Positions 8,964-31,093 of a stretch of DNA of 32,000 nt are shown piece after piece. Made by a program: the position numbers and the translations under genes. Source of the DNA: Patescibacteria group bacterium (lineage in GTDB: Bacteria > Patescibacteriota > Patescibacteriia > 2-01-FULL-39-33); assembly GCA_041662745.1 (NCBI GenBank), contig JBAZRV010000008.1, positions 1 through 32,000 of the forward strand. Direction: 5' to 3'. The notes under the pieces were generated by a model. The model ran no database searches, had not been told where the DNA came from, and worked only from the letters and a program-made list of their open reading frames with translations. The first letter of the stretch is position 1; each line of letters begins with the position of its first letter.

Positions 8964-9737
8964 TTAAAGCCAGATAGCGGTGATAAGAGTTAAAACGACC
9001 ACCAAGGAGAAAATAAAGATTGCCCTTAAACCAGAGCCGCCTTTATTGCCTTTTGTTAAGCGGGCTGGGGATGATAAAGACAGAGACAGCATTAAATAAT
9101 AGGTGGCGGACAACAAGATGGCTAACACATAAAAACTAACCGGCCAAAACAACAACAAAAACAGCAATTCCGTTAATACTATAGCCTGTATTAAAGCATA
9201 AATCAAGGCGTTACGCCGGCCGGATAAATATTTAAGGTAAAGCCAATAATAAAGGACAAAATAAACCAAGCTCAAAATCGGGACAATCACCACCGCCGGC
9301 CAATTCAAAAAAATAGAAAAATTAACCAGAGCGGCCGTCAAGAAAAAAATTATCAGAATATCAAAGTATGAATGTAAATTATTCAAATTGGCCACGCTAA
9401 CCTTGGCGGTTTCATAAAAATCATGGAACACCACCTCCAGATAAAGCCAGAATAAAAAAGCCCAGGAGAGCAGGAACAGGTTAAGAACATAAAAACTTTC
9501 CAAAATCAATAAAAAAACAAAACCGGCAATAACGAAAATCAAACTGTAAAGATAGGCAAAAGTAACCGATTTGGTCTTGTGGTTAGATTTAATTAAAAAA
9601 AAATAAATACTGGGAACTGCTAAGATGACAATAAAAAACCACGACCAATAACCGGGCCAATAAAAAAGCGCTTGGCAAAGAAGAAAAAAGGCTACCGCCG
9701 CCAGATAAGGAAAAATTCGTAAAAGAAGCAAGATCAT
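8964..9737 (-). CDS. Polytopic integral membrane protein, unknown function, 257 aa
   Basis: Long ORF with about 8 hydrophobic segments, very rich in F/L/Y. Contains an A9 run (9595..9603) that does not break the frame. Confidence 0.7.
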   Translation of the reverse strand: MILLLLRIFPYLAAVAFFLLCQALFYWPGYWSWFFIVILAVPSIYFFLIKSNHKTKSVTFAYLYSLIFVIAGFVFLLILESFYVLNLFLLSWAFLFWLYLEVVFHDFYETAKVSVANLNNLHSYFDILIIFFLTAALVNFSIFLNWPAVVIVPILSLVYFVLYYWLYLKYLSGRRNALIYALIQAIVLTELLFLLLFWPVSFYVLAILLSATYYLMLSLSLSSPARLTKGNKGGSGLRAIFIFSLVVVLTLITAIWL

Positions 9738-9742
9738 AATCC

Positions 9743-10204
9743 TTATTTCTGATTGATTATGCTTTTCAATTCTGCCAGCTTCTTGCTAACCGCCGCTTGC
9801 TGGCCGGAAACTGACAACTCGCCAATTTCGCCTAAAGTCAGAATGACGGCCAGATGCTTAGCTTTATCATTGGGCGGGACCTTGAGCGCCAACAATTTAT
9901 CTTGAGCGGAGCGAGCCAAAACCGCCAAGTCATCACTGACCGCCACTTGATTCAAAAACTCACCGGTAATAGCGCTAAAATTATCGGCATAATCGGCGTC
10001 TAATTTAATCAGGTCAACCGGCTGGCTGGGTTGATCCAAATTAGCCGTTACCTGTTTGATCTGGCCGGGTGGAAGTCCGATACTGTTAACGGCCCCATAA
10101 AATTTATAAACCAAGAACGCCGAACCGCATAAAACAACCAACCCAATCAAAAAACCGATCAGTATTTGCTGATTTAATTCCAACTTCAAACTGTTTTTGA
10201 TCAT
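9743..10204 (-). CDS. Hypothetical protein with an N-terminal TM anchor, 153 aa
   Basis: ORF with the TM segment ILIGFLIGLVVLCGSAFLVY. Tight spacing to both neighbours. Confidence 0.65.
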   Translation of the reverse strand: MIKNSLKLELNQQILIGFLIGLVVLCGSAFLVYKFYGAVNSIGLPPGQIKQVTANLDQPSQPVDLIKLDADYADNFSAITGEFLNQVAVSDDLAVLARSAQDKLLALKVPPNDKAKHLAVILTLGEIGELSVSGQQAAVSKKLAELKSIINQK

Positions 10205-10219
10205 ATAACTGAATTTTAA

Positions 10220-10576
10220 TTAGATGGCGCTGAATAAGGCTAAACCGATAAAGATAACGGCGAAGATAACAAACATCGTAGCGACCGTAGAAATAAACGC
10301 GGTTAGGGATTCCTTGTAGCGTTTATCTAAAAAATAACGCACCGGCCAAATAAAAACGATTACGCCGGACACGGCGACTGACAAAACCAATAAGGCAAGA
10401 AAAGCCACAATACCAAAAACCGCTGTCCAGGGCCGGGGCGTGGCAAAAAATGTCTGCGTGCCGACTATGAATATCGCCACTAAAGCGATGTAGCACACTT
10501 CCATAATGCCAGCCACCAAGCCTTGGCCGGCCGGAGTGGAAAAACGATCGCGCTTGAAAGGATTGAGTTTGAGCAT
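10220..10576 (-). CDS. Small integral membrane protein (3-4 TM), 118 aa
   Basis: ORF with several hydrophobic helices. Same strand and operon spacing as its neighbours. Confidence 0.65.
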   Translation of the reverse strand: MLKLNPFKRDRFSTPAGQGLVAGIMEVCYIALVAIFIVGTQTFFATPRPWTAVFGIVAFLALLVLSVAVSGVIVFIWPVRYFLDKRYKESLTAFISTVATMFVIFAVIFIGLALFSAI

Positions 10577-17317: not shown

Positions 17318-17689
17318 TTACTTAATGCCCAATTTTTGCTGGACTTTAACGGCTACATCGGCGACATTCCAATCCACCTTGACCAAGTATTCAAAAGTTC
17401 CCAAGGCCACGGCTTGAGCGACCTTAGCTGAGTCGCTTAAATTACTCAAAATTACCACTTCGGCTTTCTTGCCCCACCGATCCTTACGTAACTTGGCTAA
17501 CATTTCCAAACCGTCCATCTTGGGCATTACCAAATCTAATAGAATTAAATCAGGTTTCTCTTTCTTGGCTAACCGTAAGCCCTCAACACCGTCTTTGGCA
17601 AGTAATACCTTAACCTGCCCGGCGTCAAATTGCGATGACAACGCCTTAAGCACGATTGGTTCATCATCAATGATTAACAATTTTTTCAT
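17318..17689 (-). CDS. Stand-alone response-regulator receiver domain (CheY-like), 123 aa
   Basis: IIDDE, phospho-acceptor context LILLDLVMPKMDG, ILSNL, YLVK. No output domain. Confidence 0.92.
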   Translation of the reverse strand: MKKLLIIDDEPIVLKALSSQFDAGQVKVLLAKDGVEGLRLAKKEKPDLILLDLVMPKMDGLEMLAKLRKDRWGKKAEVVILSNLSDSAKVAQAVALGTFEYLVKVDWNVADVAVKVQQKLGIK

Positions 17690-20722: not shown

Positions 20723-23700
20723 TCAAACATTAGCTGACTGCCTTTTTCTGACCCGATACAGCCAGAAAATGACAGCGACTAAGACAATTAAGGTTATAAC
20801 TGTCGTCTGCCAGTTTAGATAACGATAAATCATTACCCAAAAGTTGCGCTTGACCGTAAAGGTGCTGACCGGACTGGGACGGCTCTTGACCTGCGCCGTT
20901 GAATCCAGGGTAACGGCAAAAACAGTATGCTGGCCCGGGGCCAGTTCTGTTATATCTTGCGAGTGATCAATACGCCAATTGCCCTGACTGTCAGCGCGCG
21001 TACGATAAATCAAAGCCTGATCGCTATGAATATAAATGATAACATCCCGATTGGGCAAAGAGACGCCGGAGAAACTCAGAGTATCGCCCGTAACCACGGT
21101 CTGCACGTTGGTAACTTGCGGTACCGGGATGCCGGCCAATTCTACGGCTTGAGCGTTCAACTCCACCAACTCTGCCGTTGGAGTCGGTCCAGTGGGGATG
21201 GCGGCAGCGGTTATTGCCGGCACAGCCGGCGTCGGCAGAACCACGACCTTATTAACAGCCACACTGGCTGAATCGCTGGTGTTGCCGGCCTGATCGCGAC
21301 TGACAGCGCCAATAATATGTTGGCCGTCAACCAGCGCCGAGGCGCTGGGCAATCGGAAACTCCAAGCGCCGGACGAATCGGCGGTTACGGTAAAGCTGCT
21401 GCGGTTGTCTAAAGTGATAATCACCTCAACGAGCGGTTCAGCTACGCCGGTGATTATTGGTGTCGCTTCAATTATGGCTGAATTATTAGCCGGATTTAAA
21501 ATTATCGGAACCGCCGGCGCCACACTGGTAATTATCAGAACAACCGGATCAGAAACCTGGCTGATATTCCCCGTTCCGTCAGTCGCCCTGACCGTTAAGG
21601 AATGGTTGCCCGGTAAAAAATTAAAAACCTGATTGAATCGGCCGCCATTGTCGGTAGCATTGCTTAATTGAGCGAACAAAACTCCGTTGTCAAACAAGTC
21701 AATACGCGATCCCGGTTCAGCCAAACCGCCGATAATAGTTATTGTGTTGTTGGTCGGCGAGTCCAGCGGATTCAAAAGCGGCTTAACCGGCGCAGTCGTA
21801 TCCGGCACCAAAATGGCACCACCGCCGACCACTGGCGGGATGACGGGCGGAACAACCGGAGGAGTTACCGGAGCAAAGACGTTAAGCTGGGTAACCGTCG
21901 CTTCATTGCCGTAATCGTCTATGGCCCAAATCTTAACATAATAATTGTCAGTGATATTCAAACCGGTGATGACCGTGGAGATGGCTAAGGGATTGGACAA
22001 GTTAGCATCGTTAACCACGCTCCATTTGCTGGCCGCGCCCGTGCGATTTATGACATCGCTTTCCGTTGCGTCATGCCATAACTCGTAGTGATTGAAATTA
22101 GCATCGGTTGTCGCTTGCCAATTCACGGTAACAGTCGTGGCGGTTTCCGAAAACTTGCTCAAAGAAGAAAGCCCCAAAGGCGCTCCCGTATCAACGGAAA
22201 AGTTAGCTGATTCATAATACGCGCTGGCATTGCCAAAACTGTCAGTGCCGCTAAAACGCACTCGCATATTGGAATTTTCTTGATTGATGAAATCCGCGCC
22301 GGCGTTCCAAATAATTGCTTTATTATTGCCCGCCGTTACCGTCCCCAAATCACCGGTCGCAGCAACCTTAGTAACCGTCCAAGTCAAACCGCCGTCAGAA
22401 GAAATATCCCAAGCAACATCAGCAGTCTCGCCCAAATCATAGCTTATCGCAACATTGTCCGTGCCAATGGTTTGGCCGGCTGAGATGCCGGAGATAATCG
22501 GGGCCTTAGTATCCAAAGCAAAATTGCCGGAAGAGTCATAAGCGCCTTGATTGCCGAAATAATCTTTAGCGCGGACGCGAACTCTCACCGTCGACAGATC
22601 TTGACCGGTAAAATCCGTACCGGCGGCCCAAGTGAAGGTCTTAGTCCCGATAGTCTGGCCGGGACCGATTTGGCCGCTTCTGGTTGTCGTGGGCACCGTC
22701 CAAGTAATGCCGCCATCATCGGAAATGCTGAATTCAATCAGATTGCCGGCCGGCGTAATATCCGTTAAGTTATAATTTATAACCACATCGGTCGTGCCGG
22801 CCGATTGGCTGGCAGTAACGTCACTGACTGCCGGGCCTTTAGTGTCAATGGTAAAATTATCAGAAATAACGATTGAACCGACGTTGCCATAACGATCCGT
22901 GCCTTGGAGTTTTATTTTAACGGCAGAATTTTCTTGATTAGGCAGGTCAACTTGCGGATTCCAACTGATACTCTTGCCGGCGCCGGCCGTAACGTTACTG
23001 CCGATATCGCCAGTTGCCGTAGTAAGAGCGACGGTATAAGTTAAACCGCCGTCAGCGGAAATTAATAAGCTAACGGTGTTGCTGGCACCGGAATTATCAG
23101 ATAAATCATAAGTGATTGCGGCCAAGCCCGTACCCGGAGCCTGCGTTAAATCAATATTGGAAACAACCGGTCCCAGGGTATCCGCATAAAAAGCCGAGGA
23201 AGCCGCCAAATTACTGTCAGCCAAAGCATCCGAGGACTTCAAGCGCGCATAGACCGTGGAATTCTCCTGATTGGGCAAATCAATCGCTATGTCCCAGGCA
23301 AAAACGTAAGCCGTACCGGCGGAAGCGAAAATTAGACTGGAAGTGCCGTTTGAACCCACCCCTAATTTTTCGGTCATAGCCTGCCAGTTGACATTATCAA
23401 TAGAATACTCAAAAACAGTTAAGTCATTAGTGTCATTTTGCGCGTCCGCGCCCGTATAATTGATTAATACGTAACCGCCGCTGGCCTGCTGAGCTGCGCT
23501 TGAGATATTAATTGAGGGGGCGGTATTAGCAATACCGGCCACTGTGGAAAAATCGGATTCGGAAGAGACTGAATGCGCGGCATCACTCGGATTGCGGGAT
23601 TTGATTTTAAAGCTATAGTTAGCCACCGGCGAACTCAAGCCATTAATGGTTACTTGACCGCTGTTACCGCTGGTTTGGCCCCATTGGCCGATGCCGGTGC

Positions 23701-25570
23701 CCAGTGTCTGCCAAACCGCACTGGCGCCTAAGGTACCATTGCTTTGCACGTATTGATCGGTGAAAACTTCATAAATGGCGTACGGCACATCACTGGCCTC
23801 GCCAAAAGCCGGATTGATCGTTACATCTACCGCAGTGTTCTGCGGATTATTAACTGTGGGCGCTGAGGGCGTATATGGCTTGACATATTTATAACTCGCC
23901 GTAGGAGAGGTGTTCTCATTTATCCTGGCGTGGCCGTAATTATCGGTTTCTATAATTTTAACCTTGGCAATATAGTCATGGCCGGTGAGCGTACCGCCAG
24001 CCGGTACGGCTTGGTTAGCCGGAGTCGCAGTATTACTTTCTCCCGTGGTGGTGGCCGAATAGGCGTTGCCGCTAAAAGCGACAAAAAACTCATTGGTAAT
24101 CGGATTAGCCTCGGTAAACGACCCGCTGACAATCGCATCAGTGTCGCCGGCTTGCGGCTGAGCCGCCAAATCGGCAGTCGCCAAGATCGCCGGAGCCAGG
24201 GTGTCCACGCTAAAGACGCCGGCTAAAACGGCATACGCGCTGCTATTGCCATAGGTATTGGTGCCGCGAATGCGGACTTTCATATTGCTGTTTTGCTGGC
24301 TATTGAAATCCACTCCCGGATTCCAAGAAACCGTCTTACCAAGTCCCGGTGCGACCCCATAACCGACAGCGCCAGTTAAGGTGGTGGTAACCACACTCCA
24401 AGTGACGCCGCCGTCATCGGAAATATCGACACTAATAACCACATTATCGCTATCAAATAAATTGTAAGTTATAGTGACATTATCGGAACCGACAACCTGC
24501 GCCGCCGTTAGGCCATTAATCACTGGGGCTTGAGTGTTAACGGCAAACAGGTTGGAAGTGACATTGCCGGTCGCATTGGCGTAAGCGTCAACGGCTCGCA
24601 AGCGAACCTGCATATTATTAACCTGCTGATTGGGAAAATTCGCTCCAGCATCCCAAGTGATGATCTTACCGTTGCCGGTTGTTATGCCCGAGCCAATGGC
24701 GCCGCTAACGCTTGAAGAAGCGACATCCCAGGTACTGCCTCCGTCCGAGGATATATCCATAGCCACAACAGAACTGTTAGCATCGCTAAAATCGTAACTT
24801 ATGGACACTAAACTGCTACTGACGACCTGAGCCGCGGCAACATTGGCAAAAACCGGGGCCTTGGTATCAACGGAAAAATCAGCAGATGAAACAAGCGTTC
24901 CGATATTGCCAAAATTATCCCTGGCTCCCGCTCGCACTCTGACCGTACCCGATTCTTGGCCGGAGTAATCAACACCGGGATTCCAGTTGATAGCCTTGCC
25001 GCTGCCCGGCACGACATTATCTCGAACATCGCCGGAAGCCGTGGAAGTCGCGACAGTCCAAGTTGATCCGCTGTCCGAAGAAACATCAAATTCCACATAA
25101 GAATCGGATAAATCGGTCAAATTATAACTTACGGATACATTATTTGAATCGGCATCTTGGCTGGCGGTGACCGAGGCCGTTACGGGGTTTTTGGTGTCAA
25201 TAATAAACGCCGCGGAAGCCGTTATGCCGCCACTGCTGGTGCCGTCGTTAGCCTGCAATCTGACAAAAACCGTCTCATCTTCGGTGTTAGGCAAATCCGC
25301 GCCCGCGTCCCACATAAAATCATGCGCGGTTCCGGAAGAAACAAAAGTTAAATCGGTTTTTCCGTCCGAACCCACCCCCGTTTTCTCGGTCATAGCATGC
25401 CAAACGGCATTGTCAGTGGAATATTGATAAATGACCAGGGTAGTGGTTTCGCTTTCCAAATCCGAACCGGTATAATTGATAATCGCATACTTGGTGCCGT
25501 CGGCAGTCTGAGCAACCGAATCAATGGCAATGGTCGGCGACTGGTTGACTGAAGAGGCGCTGCTGGACAA
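20723..25570 (-). CDS. Distal part of the giant repetitive surface protein: super-repeats 3-4, FN3, Pro-rich linker, three bacterial Ig-like domains, C-terminal TM anchor
   Basis: 1615-aa ORF with no signal peptide. The listed first codon is a TTG inside a frame that stays open upstream to 25726. The repeats each carry an Asp-box SxDxGxTW. Also present are FN3 (TVTVNWQA...YYVKIWAIDDYGNE), the linker VTPPVVPPVIPPVV, Ig-like units (ADSSGAWSF...DGQH, ADSQGNWRI...PGQH), and the C-terminal anchor WQTTVITLIVLVAVIFWLY followed by RVRKRQ. Confidence 0.85.
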   Translation of the reverse strand: MSSSASSVNQSPTIAIDSVAQTADGTKYAIINYTGSDLESETTTLVIYQYSTDNAVWHAMTEKTGVGSDGKTDLTFVSSGTAHDFMWDAGADLPNTEDETVFVRLQANDGTSSGGITASAAFIIDTKNPVTASVTASQDADSNNVSVSYNLTDLSDSYVEFDVSSDSGSTWTVATSTASGDVRDNVVPGSGKAINWNPGVDYSGQESGTVRVRAGARDNFGNIGTLVSSADFSVDTKAPVFANVAAAQVVSSSLVSISYDFSDANSSVVAMDISSDGGSTWDVASSSVSGAIGSGITTGNGKIITWDAGANFPNQQVNNMQVRLRAVDAYANATGNVTSNLFAVNTQAPVINGLTAAQVVGSDNVTITYNLFDSDNVVISVDISDDGGVTWSVVTTTLTGAVGYGVAPGLGKTVSWNPGVDFNSQQNSNMKVRIRGTNTYGNSSAYAVLAGVFSVDTLAPAILATADLAAQPQAGDTDAIVSGSFTEANPITNEFFVAFSGNAYSATTTGESNTATPANQAVPAGGTLTGHDYIAKVKIIETDNYGHARINENTSPTASYKYVKPYTPSAPTVNNPQNTAVDVTINPAFGEASDVPYAIYEVFTDQYVQSNGTLGASAVWQTLGTGIGQWGQTSGNSGQVTINGLSSPVANYSFKIKSRNPSDAAHSVSSESDFSTVAGIANTAPSINISSAAQQASGGYVLINYTGADAQNDTNDLTVFEYSIDNVNWQAMTEKLGVGSNGTSSLIFASAGTAYVFAWDIAIDLPNQENSTVYARLKSSDALADSNLAASSAFYADTLGPVVSNIDLTQAPGTGLAAITYDLSDNSGASNTVSLLISADGGLTYTVALTTATGDIGSNVTAGAGKSISWNPQVDLPNQENSAVKIKLQGTDRYGNVGSIVISDNFTIDTKGPAVSDVTASQSAGTTDVVINYNLTDITPAGNLIEFSISDDGGITWTVPTTTRSGQIGPGQTIGTKTFTWAAGTDFTGQDLSTVRVRVRAKDYFGNQGAYDSSGNFALDTKAPIISGISAGQTIGTDNVAISYDLGETADVAWDISSDGGLTWTVTKVAATGDLGTVTAGNNKAIIWNAGADFINQENSNMRVRFSGTDSFGNASAYYESANFSVDTGAPLGLSSLSKFSETATTVTVNWQATTDANFNHYELWHDATESDVINRTGAASKWSVVNDANLSNPLAISTVITGLNITDNYYVKIWAIDDYGNEATVTQLNVFAPVTPPVVPPVIPPVVGGGAILVPDTTAPVKPLLNPLDSPTNNTITIIGGLAEPGSRIDLFDNGVLFAQLSNATDNGGRFNQVFNFLPGNHSLTVRATDGTGNISQVSDPVVLIITSVAPAVPIILNPANNSAIIEATPIITGVAEPLVEVIITLDNRSSFTVTADSSGAWSFRLPSASALVDGQHIIGAVSRDQAGNTSDSASVAVNKVVVLPTPAVPAITAAAIPTGPTPTAELVELNAQAVELAGIPVPQVTNVQTVVTGDTLSFSGVSLPNRDVIIYIHSDQALIYRTRADSQGNWRIDHSQDITELAPGQHTVFAVTLDSTAQVKSRPSPVSTFTVKRNFWVMIYRYLNWQTTVITLIVLVAVIFWLYRVRKRQSANV

Positions 25571-28500
25571 AGCGCTATCACTGGAAGCGGCATGGGCTCC
25601 ATCACTGCTATTGCGCGATTTAACCTGGAATTGATAATGGTAGGAATCGAGGATTAAACCGCTGATATTAACTTTGCCGGCTACGCCTGAATAAAATCCC
25701 CACTGAAAAAAAGCCGGTACCGCTCACCTGCCAAACAGGACTGGCGCCTAAAGTTCCGTCGCTCTGCACATATTTATTCTGGGAACCTTCATAAATCGCG
25801 TATTCCAAACCATCGGTTTCTGCCGGATTTTTATTGATTAAAACATCCACCGTGCCAACGCCGGGATTGTTAACGGTCGGCGCCGACGGCGTGTACGGCT
25901 TAACATACTTATAGGCTGAATTAGGCGAGCCATTCTCATTGGTTATAGTCTGGCCGTAATCATCCGTATGAGTGATTTTGACTTGGGAAATATAATCATT
26001 ACCGTCCAAAGTGACGCCGACAACCGTAGCCTGATCGGCCGGCGAAGCGGTATTGACGCTTCCGGCAGTGGCGGAACCGTAAGAACCGCCGTCAATCGCT
26101 ACATAAAAATCATTGGTATTGGGGTTGGCCTCGGTAAAAGAACCGCCGATCAATGTTGTTGTTGCTCCGGCCAAAGGCTGGGCTGACAAATTAGCTATGA
26201 CGCTAACGGCCGGCGGCAGAGTATCAAGAGAAAAATCGGCTGAAGGCACATTGGCCGATTGATTGGCAAAAATATCCAAAGCCCTGACCCGCGCTTGCAT
26301 CGTACTTAAATTTTGATCGGGAAAATCAACGGCCGCATTCCAGGTGACGGTTTTGCCCGTTCCCGGGGTTATGTTGGCGCCGATCTCACCACTTAGGGTT
26401 GAGGTGGCCACTAACCAAGTTGACCCGCTATTGTTAGAAATATCCAATATTACCAAAGAATTGTTCTGATCGGCTAAATCATAAGTAATTGTTACGCTTG
26501 TTCCGCCCAAAGGTTGCGTGGCTGAAACATTGGTTAGGCGCGGGGACTTAGTGTCCAAAGAAAAATCAGAAGAGGCTAAAGCGCTATTATTGCTAAAACT
26601 GTCGGTCGCGGTCAAACGGAATTGCATGTTAGTCTTTTCCTGATCATTATAATCGGCGCCAGCGTCCCAAGTGATGGTTTTGCCGGATCCGGGTATGACT
26701 GCTACGCCCAAATCGCCAGTTGCCGAAGAGGTGGCCACAGTCCAAGTTGATCCCCCGTCGGCGGAAACAGCCAATAATAGATTAGCATTGCCGGCGTCTT
26801 CGGAAACATCATAATGAAAAGTAAAAGTATTGGCATTGCCGTCTTGGCCGGCGGAAAGATTAGACAATACCGGCGCATGCGTATCAACGGTAAAGATTGC
26901 GGAACCGCTATAAGATCCCTGATTGCCAAAGCTGTCCCGAGCTCTAACCCGCACCAGGACATTGGTATTATATTGATTGTCATAATCAGCTCCGGCATTC
27001 CAAGCAACGCTTTTGCCAACGCCCGGCGTTACCCCTGAACCGACGGCGCCGGTTAAGCTTGAGGTGGCGACAGTCCAGGTTGACCCGCCATCGCCGGAAA
27101 TATCTATCTGAATCAAAGAGCTGTTAGCGTCGGTTAAATTATAAGTTATGGCCACGGTTCTGGCGCCGGCGTTTTGGCTGGCGGTTACATCCGAGACAAC
27201 CGGAGCCTTGTTATCCAAAGAAAAATTCGCCGAAGCGACTAAACTGCCGTCAGTCAAGGTGTCGTTTCCTCTTAAACGAATCTTGGCTGTGGTTGTTTCC
27301 AAGCTCGGTAAATCCGCGCCCGAATCCCAAACAAAACTATAAGCGCTGCCGGTCGGCAAAAATATCAGATTAGCCGTGCCATTACTGCCTGCGCCGGACT
27401 TCTCTGTCATGGCCTGCCAACTGGAGCCGTCAACGGAATACTCGTAAGCGGATAAATAAGTAACATCGCCCTGGCCATCCGTACCCGTATAAGCAATGGG
27501 GCTGTACTGCGAGCCGTCTGTTGTTTGGGCATAACTGTCTAAAACAATGCCGGGGGCGGTATTGGTGATTTGCGCCGTAGCGGAAAAAGCCGAGTCCGAA
27601 GACGCCGCATGGCCGGCATCACTGGGGTTGCGCGACTTAACCTTAAAAATATAATTAGCCACCGGCGAAGATAAGCCGGTTATTCTGACCGTACCGGCCG
27701 AACCGGTATTATTGCCCCATTGGCCGGAACCGGTGCCGATAATCTGCCAAACCGGGCTGACGCCTAAAGTGCCGTCGCTCTGCACATATTTGGAAGTCGT
27801 GGTTTCAAATAGAGCGTATTGCACATCACCGGCTTCGCCGGCGTGCGAATTAATTGTCAAATCCAAACGCGTGGTAACGGGATTGCTCAAGGTCGGGGCT
27901 GACGGCGTATAAGGCTTAACATACTTATAAATGGAATTCGGAGTTAAATTTTCATTAACTCCCAGGTTGAAGTAATCATCGGTATGAACAATCTTAACCT
28001 GAGAAATATAATCATTGCCGTCCAAAGTGGCGCCGACAGCCGTGGCAAGATTAGACGGAGTAGCCGTATCACTGTCGCCGGCCGTAGATGAGCTGTAACC
28101 GCCTCCGTCAATCGCCACATAAAAATGATTGGCATCGGGATTAACCTCGGTAAACGATCCGCCGATTAAAACCGCAGTGTCGCCGGCGTTGGGTTGAGCT
28201 TGCAAATCAGCCGCGGTTAATGTCGCTGCCGGCAAAGTATCCAAAGAAAAATTAGCCGAGGCGGAATAAACGCCCTGGTTCTGCCACTTGTCCTTGGCCC
28301 GGATGCGCACTCGCATATTGCTTTTCTGTTGGTTGGGATAATCCGCGCCGGCAGTCCAATAAATTGTCTTGCCATTGCCGGCCGTTACTCCCGCGCCGAC
28401 AGCGCCGCTAACGCCGGTTGCCGGTACCGTCCAAGTATCTCCGTCATCGCCCGATATTTGCATCTCTACCAAAATATTATCGGCGGTATCATCAAATAAA

Positions 28501-28922
28501 TCATAAGTGACGGCCACTGTCGTTGTGCCCAAGGGTTGAGTGGCTAAAACATTGGAAACGGTGGAAGAAACATAATCAACGGTGAAAACGGAGGAAGTGG
28601 CATAAATGCCATTGCCGATGCCGTCATTAGGCCGTAAACGAACATAAGTGGTGGTAACGACGTCGCCCAATTGCGAACGGGCGTCCCAAACGAAAGTGTG
28701 GGGCGTACCGCCGGAAGAAGCGGGCAAGCCGGAAACTCCGCTATGGGCCGGATCGGTGGTGGAGGCGGTCATAGTCACCGCGTCGGCAAAGGTGCCGGAT
28801 AAGGAATACTCATAAGCCGTCAAACTGGATATATCGTCTTCCGCGTCTTGCAAATTATAATTGACATGGACATAACCATAAGTTGTGTCTTGCGCCGGCG
28901 CCACAGATTGCACCTGGGGTCG
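22187..28922 (-). repeat. In-frame array of four diverged super-repeats inside the giant gene, period 2016 nt (672 codons)
   Basis: Unit 1 is 27552..28922 (A-B-C). Unit 2 is 25532..27551 (A-B-B-B-C, contains the frameshift). Unit 3 is 23516..25531 (A-B-B-B-C). Unit 4 is 22187..23515 (A-B-B-B). The landmark INYTG occurs at residues 31-35 and 703-707 of ORF 20723..25570. The landmark YKYVKPYTPSAPT recurs near 27915, 25895 and 23880. Confidence 0.85.
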
Positions 28923-30269
28923 CTGATTTTGCGTGTAAGTAATGGTGATATTATCCAAAATCACCTGCTGAGTGCCATCGCTCGACAAGTAAGCGCGCCA
29001 TTTTATTTGATTGGTAGAAGTGGTGAATTTAGAAATATTGGCGTTAACATCGGTTGCTGTATTATAATCAGTCGTTAAGGTGGTGGTCGCCCAAGCTGAG
29101 CCGTTGTAATATTGCCAATTAGACCCGTCATCAGCTGACAATTGATAATAAATTTCTCCGCCGTTTTTAGTCGCTGTTTCCACGAAAGAATTCCAACTTA
29201 CCGTCTTGAGCATCGTCAATGAGGCGACTGGAGTAGTTGTTGGCTTATCGGAAGCATAAGCATGAGTGGTTTTCGACCAATCCAACTGGATATTGTCAAA
29301 ACCAACCGTATAAGGACCAATATTAGAACCGCCGGTTTCCAGCCAAACAGCTAACTTAAGATAATAAGTGCCAATAGCCGTTACCTTGGAAGAAACATCC
29401 AAATTGCTGACCGAAGTCCAACCTTGGGTAGCGGTTATTTCTCCCGACGACCAGACCTCTTGGCCGATAGTCGGCGCGCCGGTGCCAGTATCAATAAAAG
29501 CGTAAACCTTAAAGGTTATGGGCGGATTGGGAGTAGAATCATAAGCTGTAACATGATAATCAAAACTTACAGTTGCTGTCGGATCGGTAACAGTGGTGGT
29601 AAAGCCCTGCCGCCAATAACCGCCTAATTCATCATCTTTGCCGGACGGCGCGCTGATATTTACCCAGCCGCCGGGATTGCCGCCAGTCGTAATCCTAGCT
29701 CCGGTAATATTAACCTCGCCCCCTCCCTGGCCCCAATCGGCATAAGTCCAACCGGTGGTATCGCTGTCAAAACCGGGGTTGGTGATGTTGCCACTATCGG
29801 TCGTACCATTATCTTTTAATTGAGCTACCCCGCCGGTTACCTCAATTTTGGCAGGGTCATAAGTGTAATCGCCGGCGTTGTCAAAAGTCCAATCCTGCGT
29901 GTCGGCCAAAATCTGAATTGCGCCCAAAAAAATAAAAGATAAGATGCCGACGACCAAAATTTTCAAAACAAACAGGCCTCCCGCGCCGCCTGCAGTGGCC
30001 AAACTGATGCGCCGCCTGACGGTGTAAACCCGCAGAGGCTTAACGGCTTTCTGCCGGCTGGGAAAAATCATTCCTTGCTCTTGCAATCGGTCCGGCGGAA
30101 CCAACAGGTACATGGGCAAGGAGACAACGGCAAACACGACTTCTATCGCCAATAATTCTACGGCTAAAGGCAGGACTCTGTACCATTGTCCGGTTTTAAC
30201 GACTTTTTGACGCAAACCGAAAACATAGCCGGAATAAGAAAAAAATAGATTTAGCCAGCGCTTAGACAT
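25668..30269 (-). CDS. Proximal part of the giant repetitive surface protein: N-terminal TM module, lectin/CBM-like jelly-roll region, super-repeats 1-2. It is truncated 14 codons after a T7 run
   Basis: The likely start is MSKRWLNL at 30269, 2 nt after the stop of the 273-aa gene. Two hydrophobic segments are followed by NPGFDSDTTGWTYADW, a CBM-like signature. After that come Asp-box beta-sandwich repeats and FN3-like modules. Confidence 0.88.
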   Translation of the reverse strand: MSKRWLNLFFSYSGYVFGLRQKVVKTGQWYRVLPLAVELLAIEVVFAVVSLPMYLLVPPDRLQEQGMIFPSRQKAVKPLRVYTVRRRISLATAGGAGGLFVLKILVVGILSFIFLGAIQILADTQDWTFDNAGDYTYDPAKIEVTGGVAQLKDNGTTDSGNITNPGFDSDTTGWTYADWGQGGGEVNITGARITTGGNPGGWVNISAPSGKDDELGGYWRQGFTTTVTDPTATVSFDYHVTAYDSTPNPPITFKVYAFIDTGTGAPTIGQEVWSSGEITATQGWTSVSNLDVSSKVTAIGTYYLKLAVWLETGGSNIGPYTVGFDNIQLDWSKTTHAYASDKPTTTPVASLTMLKTVSWNSFVETATKNGGEIYYQLSADDGSNWQYYNGSAWATTTLTTDYNTATDVNANISKFTTSTNQIKWRAYLSSDGTQQVILDNITITYTQNQRPQVQSVAPAQDTTYGYVHVNYNLQDAEDDISSLTAYEYSLSGTFADAVTMTASTTDPAHSGVSGLPASSGGTPHTFVWDARSQLGDVVTTTYVRLRPNDGIGNGIYATSSVFTVDYVSSTVSNVLATQPLGTTTVAVTYDLFDDTADNILVEMQISGDDGDTWTVPATGVSGAVGAGVTAGNGKTIYWTAGADYPNQQKSNMRVRIRAKDKWQNQGVYSASANFSLDTLPAATLTAADLQAQPNAGDTAVLIGGSFTEVNPDANHFYVAIDGGGYSSSTAGDSDTATPSNLATAVGATLDGNDYISQVKIVHTDDYFNLGVNENLTPNSIYKYVKPYTPSAPTLSNPVTTRLDLTINSHAGEAGDVQYALFETTTSKYVQSDGTLGVSPVWQIIGTGSGQWGNNTGSAGTVRITGLSSPVANYIFKVKSRNPSDAGHAASSDSAFSATAQITNTAPGIVLDSYAQTTDGSQYSPIAYTGTDGQGDVTYLSAYEYSVDGSSWQAMTEKSGAGSNGTANLIFLPTGSAYSFVWDSGADLPSLETTTAKIRLRGNDTLTDGSLVASANFSLDNKAPVVSDVTASQNAGARTVAITYNLTDANSSLIQIDISGDGGSTWTVATSSLTGAVGSGVTPGVGKSVAWNAGADYDNQYNTNVLVRVRARDSFGNQGSYSGSAIFTVDTHAPVLSNLSAGQDGNANTFTFHYDVSEDAGNANLLLAVSADGGSTWTVATSSATGDLGVAVIPGSGKTITWDAGADYNDQEKTNMQFRLTATDSFSNNSALASSDFSLDTKSPRLTNVSATQPLGGTSVTITYDLADQNNSLVILDISNNSGSTWLVATSTLSGEIGANITPGTGKTVTWNAAVDFPDQNLSTMQARVRALDIFANQSANVPSADFSLDTLPPAVSVIANLSAQPLAGATTTLIGGSFTEANPNTNDFYVAIDGGSYGSATAGSVNTASPADQATVVGVTLDGNDYISQVKITHTDDYGQTITNENGSPNSAYKYVKPYTPSAPTVNNPGVGTVDVLINKNPAETDGLEYAIYEGSQNKYVQSDGTLGASPVWQVSGTGFFSVGILFRRSRQS
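25706..25712 (-). other. A7 (+ strand) / T7 (coding strand) homopolymer: the frameshift site in the giant gene
   Basis: Coding strand: GGT ACC GGC TTT TTT TCA GTG ... TAA. The +1 frame is open from 25726 downstream and carries the expected paralogous sequence. Confidence 0.8.
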
Positions 30270-30271
30270 AG

Positions 30272-31093
30272 CTAAAGAGTTAATATGGTTAAGAAAATTC
30301 CTAATAAGATGATAATAATCACCGACCAATTGGCCAAGGAATCAATATTCTTGGCGATTAAATCAAACCAAGTGGAAGTTACTTTGAAATATTGGGTCGG
30401 CGCAGTCTCGCTCCTGGTCCCCTGCTGTTGATTGTAACTAAAAACCAGCACCGAATGATTGCCCTCGCTTAAACGAAAATTGCTTTGCAGTTGTTCTATC
30501 CGCCAGTTGCCGGCTGAATCCGCATCGGCCGTATAAACCGCCGTCTGCTGATCCGACAACAATAAAACAACCGTAGCCAGCGGTTGTCCAACGCCTGAGA
30601 AGACGTAATTGCCTCCCCTGATTTTTTTGACTTGTCGCAATTCCGGCCTCGCCATAGTGTTTACTACGCGAGCCGTCTGGATTCCCGTATCAGCGGCCAC
30701 CAATTCCTGTTGCGTAATGTCGGCCGGCTGTAAATCGCCTACCGAATAAAGTTGCAAGGGACCGAAAACGGTCGGTGTCAAAACAATAATCAATAATTTT
30801 GCCAGCCAAACCAAAGCGATAACGCCAACGCCGGTAACTGTTAGGATGCGGCGTAAATTATAATCAAAATTCACTTGGGCATAAGACCCTTGGTCGGCGA
30901 AATAAGCCGTAACGTCGCGAGACTTCAAGGTCAGATATAACGGAAGAGAGGTCACGGCTAAAAATATCTCCCAGAAAAAAAGTAGGAAAATATTATAAAC
31001 TGCCTCCAACCCAGTTTGCCCTACGATAAGTTGTTTGCGATTATAGATGCGGTTGGTTAAAAGCAATACGAGATTTAACCATTTATTCTTCAT
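30272..31093 (-). CDS. 273-aa membrane protein: a mini-paralog made of the giant protein's N-terminal TM module plus its last Ig-like domain and C-terminal TM anchor
   Basis: MKNKWLNLVLLL...EIFLAVTSLPLYL...RRILTVTGVGVIALVWL aligns with MSKRWLNLFFSY...EVVFAVVSLPMYL...RRISLATAGGAGGLFVL. FSGVGQPLATVVLLLSDQQTAVYTADADSAGNWRIEQ...EGNHSV aligns with FSGVSLPNRDVIIYIHSDQALIYRTRADSQGNWRIDH...PGQHTV. The C-terminal helix is WSVIIIILLGIFLTILTL. Confidence 0.85.
   Translation of the reverse strand: MKNKWLNLVLLLTNRIYNRKQLIVGQTGLEAVYNIFLLFFWEIFLAVTSLPLYLTLKSRDVTAYFADQGSYAQVNFDYNLRRILTVTGVGVIALVWLAKLLIIVLTPTVFGPLQLYSVGDLQPADITQQELVAADTGIQTARVVNTMARPELRQVKKIRGGNYVFSGVGQPLATVVLLLSDQQTAVYTADADSAGNWRIEQLQSNFRLSEGNHSVLVFSYNQQQGTRSETAPTQYFKVTSTWFDLIAKNIDSLANWSVIIIILLGIFLTILTL

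Follow-up and report, generated by a model that had tools for sequence, protein, structure and literature searches.

Several kinds of bacterial surface and membrane protein are pertinent to the locus described here. Giant immunoglobulin (Ig)-repeat adhesins, such as Ebh of Staphylococcus aureus and Bap, and repeat adhesins, such as SiiE, LapA and MpIBP, are held by a C-terminal membrane helix or a wall anchor. Conserved N-terminal extensions of the signal peptide are known from autotransporters and two-partner secretion proteins (ESPR) and from Gram-positive bacteria (YSIRK-G/S); EsaA and the YhgE/Pip proteins have ectodomains anchored at both ends; and non-enzymatic membrane proteins control a separate kinase in the chemoreceptor-CheA-CheY, YycH/YycI-WalK and LiaF-LiaS systems. 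The stretch analyzed here (hereafter the window; 32,000 nucleotides (nt), positions 1 to 32,000 of contig JBAZRV010000008.1, GenBank assembly GCA_041662745.1) comes from an ultrasmall groundwater bacterium of the Patescibacteria, whose own genome is 1.0 Mb in size and 98% complete. It carries adjacent genes for a 273-amino acid (aa) membrane protein and a giant surface protein that is homologous to it at both ends.

The giant resembles the giant Ig-repeat adhesins in its thousands of residues of tandem beta-sandwich modules and in its C-terminal hydrophobic helix followed by basic residues. Unlike them, it carries no ordinary, YSIRK-type or type-I-secretion signal but instead a conserved, three-helix N-terminal module (N-module) of ~120 aa, and it is accompanied by an obligate adjacent mini-paralog, inherited together with CheY-like receivers. 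Taken as a whole, the best explanation of the locus, which we consider about evenly poised between right and wrong, is that the small and giant proteins are old paralogs that obligately occur as a pair, each made up of two separable parts, that the N-module makes contact with signaling proteins and that the giant is cleaved.

A small protein homologous to both ends of a giant

In pairwise BLASTP comparison the small protein matches the giant at the N-terminus (32% identity over 56 aa, E 6e-4) and at the C-terminus (28% identity over 116 aa, E 2e-12), with a weaker match to the preceding Ig domain. Alignment of profiles built from 25 small proteins and 10 giants (hhalign) extends both matches (N-ends, E 6.7e-17 over 106 columns; C-ends, E 2.1e-21 over 121 columns), while controls with swapped ends were null (E 0.011 and 0.41, probability <4%). 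These comparisons bear out the proposal of a sequence-only reading of the window that the small protein equals the two ends of the giant fused, and at the level of sequence it is confirmed as an ancient and genuine paralog of each. When five small and five giant N-modules are aligned together, 12 positions besides the start Met are invariant (L6, N7, L38, E42, S49, P51, Y53, Y78, R81, R82, K99 and G111), including those of a W/L-L-N motif near the start.

Homologs of the small protein are detectable in Buchanan-, Magasanik- and Uhrbacteria-labelled genomes (201 proteins, 51–89% identity) and almost all are exactly 273 aa long. A mixed N-module profile searched against 1.84 billion representatives gave 176 matching clusters, with the module starting at about residue 1 (span 1–125) in all among the matches listed. 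The sizes of these proteins are bimodal, with 59 of ~250–330 aa and 30 of 900–5,686 aa, and most of the remainder fragment-like. Of the 59 small members, 51 end in a hydrophobic helix flush with the C-terminus, and 24 of the 30 large members have such a C-terminal helix plus a basic tail; most members of either size without the helix look truncated. The common chassis of N-module and C-terminal helix proposed for the pair is thus found family-wide. Fusions of the N-module to a kinase were considered and rejected: in ten module proteins of intermediate size no kinase domain is present, and they resemble truncated giants.

The two types separate in a tree of N-modules, where small-type modules form one clade (support 98/92) and giant-type modules lie on the other side, pointing to one old duplication. 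The source genome contains exactly two copies of either end, both in the small/giant pair. The module was found in six of 201 genomes sampled from the class, each with exactly two matches, and the copies are adjacent wherever coordinates were examined; in a sample of the phylum, nine of 401 genomes gave a match, including one pair in another class. The pair is therefore sporadic and, where found, almost always complete.

The junction between the two genes (TAG-ct-ATG) consists of the stop codon of the small gene (30,272–30,274), a 2-nt spacer (30,270–30,271) and the start codon of the giant gene (30,267–30,269). The 2-nt gap noticed earlier is thus present in the sequence, and gaps of 1–2 nt also separate the genes in L001 and L005. 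Position 30,269, previously taken as the edge of the small gene, belongs to the ATG of the giant, and the small open reading frame (ORF) occupies 30,272–31,093. The giant is not a single ORF in the window, as had been assumed, but is split into two (25,668–30,269 and 20,723–25,570) by one extra base in a T7 run, the first ORF closing with an out-of-frame tail past the frameshift. In the relative L001, with the same gene order and a small protein 89% identical to the one here, the giant is one intact gene of 3,181 aa. The extra base is a T (or C), L001 reading in frame there as GGT TTT TTT CAA, and the small paralog is intact.

A specific N-terminal module and a generic C-terminal anchor

The small protein begins with the N-module, which a one-helix linker joins to a single Ig-like domain; a juxtamembrane helix and a C-terminal transmembrane (TM) helix follow. 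Its N-module comprises helix H0 (residues 2–24), TM1 (29–55; invariant E42 and an S49-x-P51-x-Y53 motif), a basic loop (Y78-x-x-R81-R82) and TM2 (83–110; K99). The AlphaFold2 (AF2) model of the small protein (120 sequences; mean predicted local distance difference test score (pLDDT) 83) has helices at 2–24, 29–55, 58–67 and 72–110, followed by a poorly defined linker, a helix (124–140), a beta-sandwich (151–238) and two further helices (242–248 and 250–272). The two hydrophobic segments originally recognized in the N-module therefore understate it, as the model places three helices and a short one before the ectodomain.

No match to the N-module was found in Pfam, NCBIfam or PDB sequence searches, a Foldseek search with a model of the module by itself (pLDDT 68) returned no hit below E 2.4, and no description of the module or of the small/giant pair was found in the literature searched. 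The earlier impression that it is not a known secretion signal or sorting domain agrees with these results. It appears to be a specific, previously undescribed membrane module of ~110–125 aa, with WLN, an invariant intramembrane Glu, S-x-P-x-Y, Y-x-x-R-R and a mid-helix Lys. A Tat signal was rejected as an interpretation of the invariant RR because no TatC was found in the genome, which leaves Sec as the route of export.

The C-terminal part is less distinctive. In the giant it scores 42.3 bits over three stretches with Big_13 (PF19077), above the Pfam gathering threshold of 27 bits. The Ig-like domain of the small protein scores 17.3 bits, under the cut-off, yet is homologous to the last Ig domain of the giant by the hhalign comparison given above, a domain whose fold is like those of Bap, SiiE and MpIBP. 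In a Foldseek search the whole small-protein model matched through its Ig domain only, to Ig domains of Bap, SiiE and the ice-binding adhesin MpIBP. Basic residues behind the C-terminal helix had been described as part of the shared design; they are present in the giant (RVRKRQ), while the small protein ends flush with the helix. At the start of this helix the giants have a conserved juxtamembrane motif, Y-[LFIV]-[ND]-[LWIF]-x-[TS]-T, and the small family has D-x-x-L-x-N-W there.

The three-part look of the giant C-terminus (the conserved Y-L-N/D-L-x-T-T motif, the hydrophobic helix and the basic tail), together with the presence of one sortase gene in the genome, could indicate a sortase, exosortase or rhombosortase signal that is removed as the protein is linked to the wall. 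However, no LPXTG-like pentapeptide precedes the helix in the giant (...YRYLNWQTTVITLIVLVAVIFWLYRVRKRQSANV) or the small protein (...DSLANWSVIIIILLGIFLTILTL), and the single sortase (contig C5:7457-10049) adjoins a 606-aa protein with a canonical sorting signal (...KLPNTGASS...KRRAF; LPNTG, helix and KRR). Exosortase_EpsH and Rhomboid gave no match in the 98%-complete genome, where controls matched; the small paralog shares the helix without any tail; and ends made of a plain helix and a basic tail are seen in many of the proteins encoded by this genome. Wall linkage through such a signal, which would have undone the proposed membrane anchoring, is thus very improbable, and the C-terminal helix is most simply a stop-transfer anchor. 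Weaker Ig(+TM) matches to the C-terminal end were found in 38 other genomes of the class without the N-module. To judge from these sequences, the C-terminal anchor is probably generic (Big_13-type Ig domain, juxtamembrane helix, stop-transfer TM helix), with the N-module being the specific part.

A 1,741-aa protein encoded at L033 (G018:C21, 217–5,439, minus strand) also has an Ig+TM C-terminal end like that of the giant. Its N-terminus carries two hydrophobic segments (…VLLFLTYLQYAFVHSFILLFL … YRNQVRFASLSGFFVLLTAAVATFAIVV…) that do not match the N-module profile, and may be an analogous leader.

Candidate cleavage and membrane topology

Rule-based scoring (small/neutral residues at -3 and -1) of an alignment of 36 large members, 35 of which were scored, revealed a candidate signal peptidase I site in the giants. 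At a position five residues ahead of a conserved Trp, 31 of 35 clusters show the (-3,-1) pattern, and no other offset gives more than 19 of 35; in the giant of the window it lies directly after the second hydrophobic helix of the N-module. Divergent giants have typical c-regions here (APGRAKA↓D, GSHGHKAHA↓E and TNSASKASA↓M, where the arrow marks the candidate cut), and no comparable site was seen in the small family. Signal peptidase I is encoded in the source genome, and in the class three unrelated Ig+helix proteins carry signal peptides of the ordinary kind, ending in AKA↓A, VQA↓A and LWA↓Q. The N-terminal anchor of the giant may therefore be cut off by signal peptidase, a tentative reading of these residue patterns; it is the very case under which the sequence-only reading said that its double-anchor idea would fail. 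The mature giant would then begin at D123 (DTQDWTFDNAGDYTYDPAK).

The sequence-only reading had both proteins attached to the membrane at both ends, the ~3,000-aa ectodomain of the giant being a loop tethered at its N- and C-termini and the N-module a pure double-helix anchor. Long hydrophobic helices at both ends in both families fit this arrangement, as does the length of TM2 (30–35 residues), typical of uncleaved signal anchors, and the small paralog, with no cleavage motif, has a module as conserved as that of the giant. The giants-only conserved small residues at -3/-1 and the variable polar c-regions behind TM2 speak against it, and a pure anchor needs no invariant Glu, S-x-P-x-Y or RR motifs. 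Double anchoring is accordingly likely for the small protein and doubtful for the giant, with its own conserved cleavage-type site, and for both proteins together we consider it unlikely. EsaA and the YhgE/Pip proteins likewise have a large extracellular region between membrane helices, a topology likely for the small paralog, but no homology to them was detected in the sequence searches, their ectodomains are helical hairpins rather than Ig-like chains, and the N-terminal tether of the giant may be cleaved.

Charge counts over 168 small and 37 large sequences give a net charge of +4.3 for the N-tail and of +2.5 (small) or +4.4 (giant) for the inter-helix loop, with an acidic region behind the second helix. 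By charge, the N-tail and inter-helix loop would both be cytoplasmic. As both are basic, a topology of two helices followed by an external ectodomain, which double anchoring of both proteins implies, has the wrong parity; were TM1 a plain span, the ectodomain would lie inside the cell, an implausible place for Asp-box/Ig repeats. The idea that the paralogs have dual or opposite topologies was rejected, the charge bias being the same in both.

Two-component genes beside the module

The genes of the region are all on the minus strand, in the order two single-domain receivers, small paralog, giant and multi-PAS histidine kinase, followed on the same strand by a third receiver (REC3), a PAS protein and a dCache-HAMP-PAS kinase. 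The proximal receiver lies immediately upstream of the module gene in 11 of 12 loci (L001, L003, L005, L006, G164, G045, G039, G122, G519, G571 and G216) and the distal receiver is upstream in all nine examined loci of the source's class. Orthologs of the proximal receiver are 58–63% identical in two cassette genomes tested; in three relatives of the same family or order that lack the pair, even the best receiver reaches only 35–46% identity to it. A kinase and/or third receiver is found behind the giant in G000, L001, G164, G122, G519 and G571. In several genomes the kinase there is an ortholog of the PAS kinase of the window (core 49–58% identical), the other class also has a kinase at this position, and REC3 is kept behind the kinase in G164 and G122 and directly behind the giant in G519.

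In two species the N-module exists as a stand-alone 116-aa protein, encoded between a receiver and a ~250-aa HisKA+HATPase kinase without sensor or TM segment. These two modules are 67% identical, and a homolog search with the stand-alone module returned three proteins. The minimal trios, at L028 (G216:C1, 9,686–11,184) and L040 (1,035–2,520), comprise a receiver of 122–126 aa, the 116-aa module and a kinase of 249–251 aa, with housekeeping genes around them. A module that was purely an anchor, as first supposed, would need neither strict linkage to a receiver ortholog nor a stand-alone gene beside a kinase. A bare kinase needs a partner for input or localization and single-domain receivers need a protein target, making the module the obvious candidate for one or both, and this gene neighborhood suggests a signaling role for the N-module. 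The arrangement is like that of the chemoreceptor, YycHI and LiaF systems in that genes for a membrane protein with no enzymatic domain, a kinase lacking TM segments and single-domain receivers lie together, as in the minimal trio of the two species; unlike in those systems, there is no sequence similarity, no HAMP or methyl-accepting Pfam domain was found in the small protein or the giant, and the association is known here from gene neighborhood; the analogy is a functional one only.

Alternatively, the N-module might be only an unusually long, conserved export leader, serving to direct very large cargo to one particular place or to delay its export, with the small paralog as an export helper, dock or decoy and the signaling genes as mere co-regulated neighbors. 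The n-h-c-like layout closing in an A-x-A-type site, and the Sec route left by the absence of TatC, are compatible with this, and ESPR and YSIRK-G/S provide a precedent, since there too very large surface proteins have a conserved N-terminal extension ahead of the hydrophobic core and A-x-A-type site. ESPR and YSIRK-G/S are, however, short (~10–25 aa) and not membrane-spanning, whereas the N-module adds two helices, in which an invariant Glu is buried, is kept without cleavage in a paralog and is also encoded by a gene of its own. A leader also does not explain cargo-less modules between receiver and kinase in two species, a small paralog in which the module is retained though no cleavage site follows it and whose length is the more tightly constrained of the two, or a receiver ortholog inherited together with the module, and a role limited to export seems quite improbable to us.

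In the explanation that we favor, paired paralogs with a signaling contact and a cleaved giant, the last helix of the N-module would act as the Sec export signal for whatever comes after it. In the small paralog the module would stay attached, holding the protein in the membrane at both ends. In the giant it would probably be cut off at the signal-peptidase-type site, yielding a ~3,000-aa fiber anchored by the C-terminal helix only and a free module of ~120 aa, and the two paralogs may form hetero-oligomers. The basic cytoplasmic faces (the N-terminal helix and the Y-x-x-RR loop) would be the contact point for the co-inherited CheY-like receivers and TM-less histidine kinase, and the pair would be the membrane and surface arm of a two-component circuit without DNA-binding output. 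It could be either a receptor, passing host or surface contact to the kinase, or a target, through which a phosphorylated receiver acts on the surface fiber.

Several observations weigh against this explanation. The hydrophobic stretch before the candidate site begins at about residue 85, after two other helices, and at 30–37 residues has the length of a signal anchor, usually uncleaved; the core of a short signal peptide is ~7–15 residues near the N-terminus, and that of the giants comes to 12–19 if counted from the conserved Lys. The conserved Ala could instead be structural, as part of the first residues of the head domain. Cytoplasmic location of both basic segments would bar TM1 from being a plain span, a parity conflict that applies here too. 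Mean-field coevolution analysis (172 small-family sequences, effective number 135) recovered a few contacts inside the Ig domain, but pairs linking the C-terminal helix to TM1 or TM2 did not rise above noise, which weighs neither for nor against packing of the two ends. Neither a receiver nor a kinase lies near the pair in G112, no kinase was within reach of the loci L003 and G045, and the case for signaling draws on a single kind of evidence, gene neighborhood. Finally, with the giant frameshifted, the system may not be fully functional in the source genome.

A possible, though rather doubtful, extension is that the N-module represents a new kind of transmembrane signaling element, in which an extracellular antenna, as small as one Ig domain or as large as a 5,000-residue fiber, is coupled to a soluble histidine kinase and CheY-like receivers without DNA-binding output, cleavage of the giant freeing a module equivalent to the stand-alone 116-aa proteins.

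The features of the pair and its neighbors are collected in Table 1. Elsewhere in the window, three consecutive minus-strand ORFs (8,964–10,576; 257, 153 and 118 aa) have no Pfam match, and two of them end in hydrophobic helices.

Table 1 Coordinates of the small/giant pair, its parts and adjacent two-component genes in the window.
Feature	Position	Strand	Basis or remark
Third single-domain receiver (REC3)	17318..17689	-	
Multi-PAS histidine kinase, ~1,000 aa, no TM segment	17724..20726	-	directly downstream of giant
Giant gene, second part, ~1,660 aa in frame: repeats, three Big_13 Ig domains, C-terminal anchor	20723..25705	-	
Giant C-terminal module: last Ig domain, juxtamembrane helix NFWVMIYRYLNWQTT, TM helix (20756-20806), basic tail RVRKRQSANV	20726..21130	-	
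T7 run with one extra base splitting the giant	25706..25712	-	comparison with intact 3,181-aa ortholog in L001
Giant gene, first ORF, 1,533 aa: N-module, head domains, Asp-box/Ig-like repeats	25668..30269	-	
N-module of giant, residues 1-125	29895..30269	-	
Candidate signal peptidase I site, ...AIQILA↓DTQDW (A122↓D123)	29901..29906	-	
Small paralog, 273 aa	30272..31093	-	ORF and translation; 201 homologs; AF2 model
C-terminal TM helix of small protein, residues ~254-273, ...ANWSVIIIILLGIFLTILTL	30275..30334	-	without cytoplasmic tail
Ig-like beta-sandwich of small protein, residues ~150-240	30374..30646	-	weak Big_13 (17.3 bits); hhalign; AF2; Foldseek
N-module of small protein, residues 1-112	30758..31093	-	
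Proximal CheY-like receiver, 127 aa	31106..31489	-	ortholog accompanies module in 11/12 loci
Distal CheY-like receiver, 139 aa	31493..31912	-	

To the first description of the pair the present analysis adds a cleavage-type site specific to the giants, a parity conflict in the topology, the sortase, exosortase and Tat negatives, the receiver-module-kinase trios and the distinction between a generic C-terminal anchor and a specific N-module. Patescibacteria account for a large share of bacterial diversity and their cultivated members live attached to host cells; to our knowledge, how they recognize hosts and regulate attachment is largely unknown. Giant membrane proteins have been proposed, in general statements only, as probable mediators of attachment (PMC8080830). 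The cassette described here is compact and conserved (receivers, mini-paralog, giant fiber and a kinase without membrane segment), and its undescribed N-module is a concrete candidate for a link between the cell surface and phospho-signaling. It also poses a question of biogenesis, namely how a 3,000-residue ectodomain is exported behind a three-helix leader, and whether that leader is cut off or kept. If the proposed reading is true, ultrasmall epibiotic bacteria would wire contact sensing and adhesion control through membrane protein-protein phospho-signaling, with no transcription factor.

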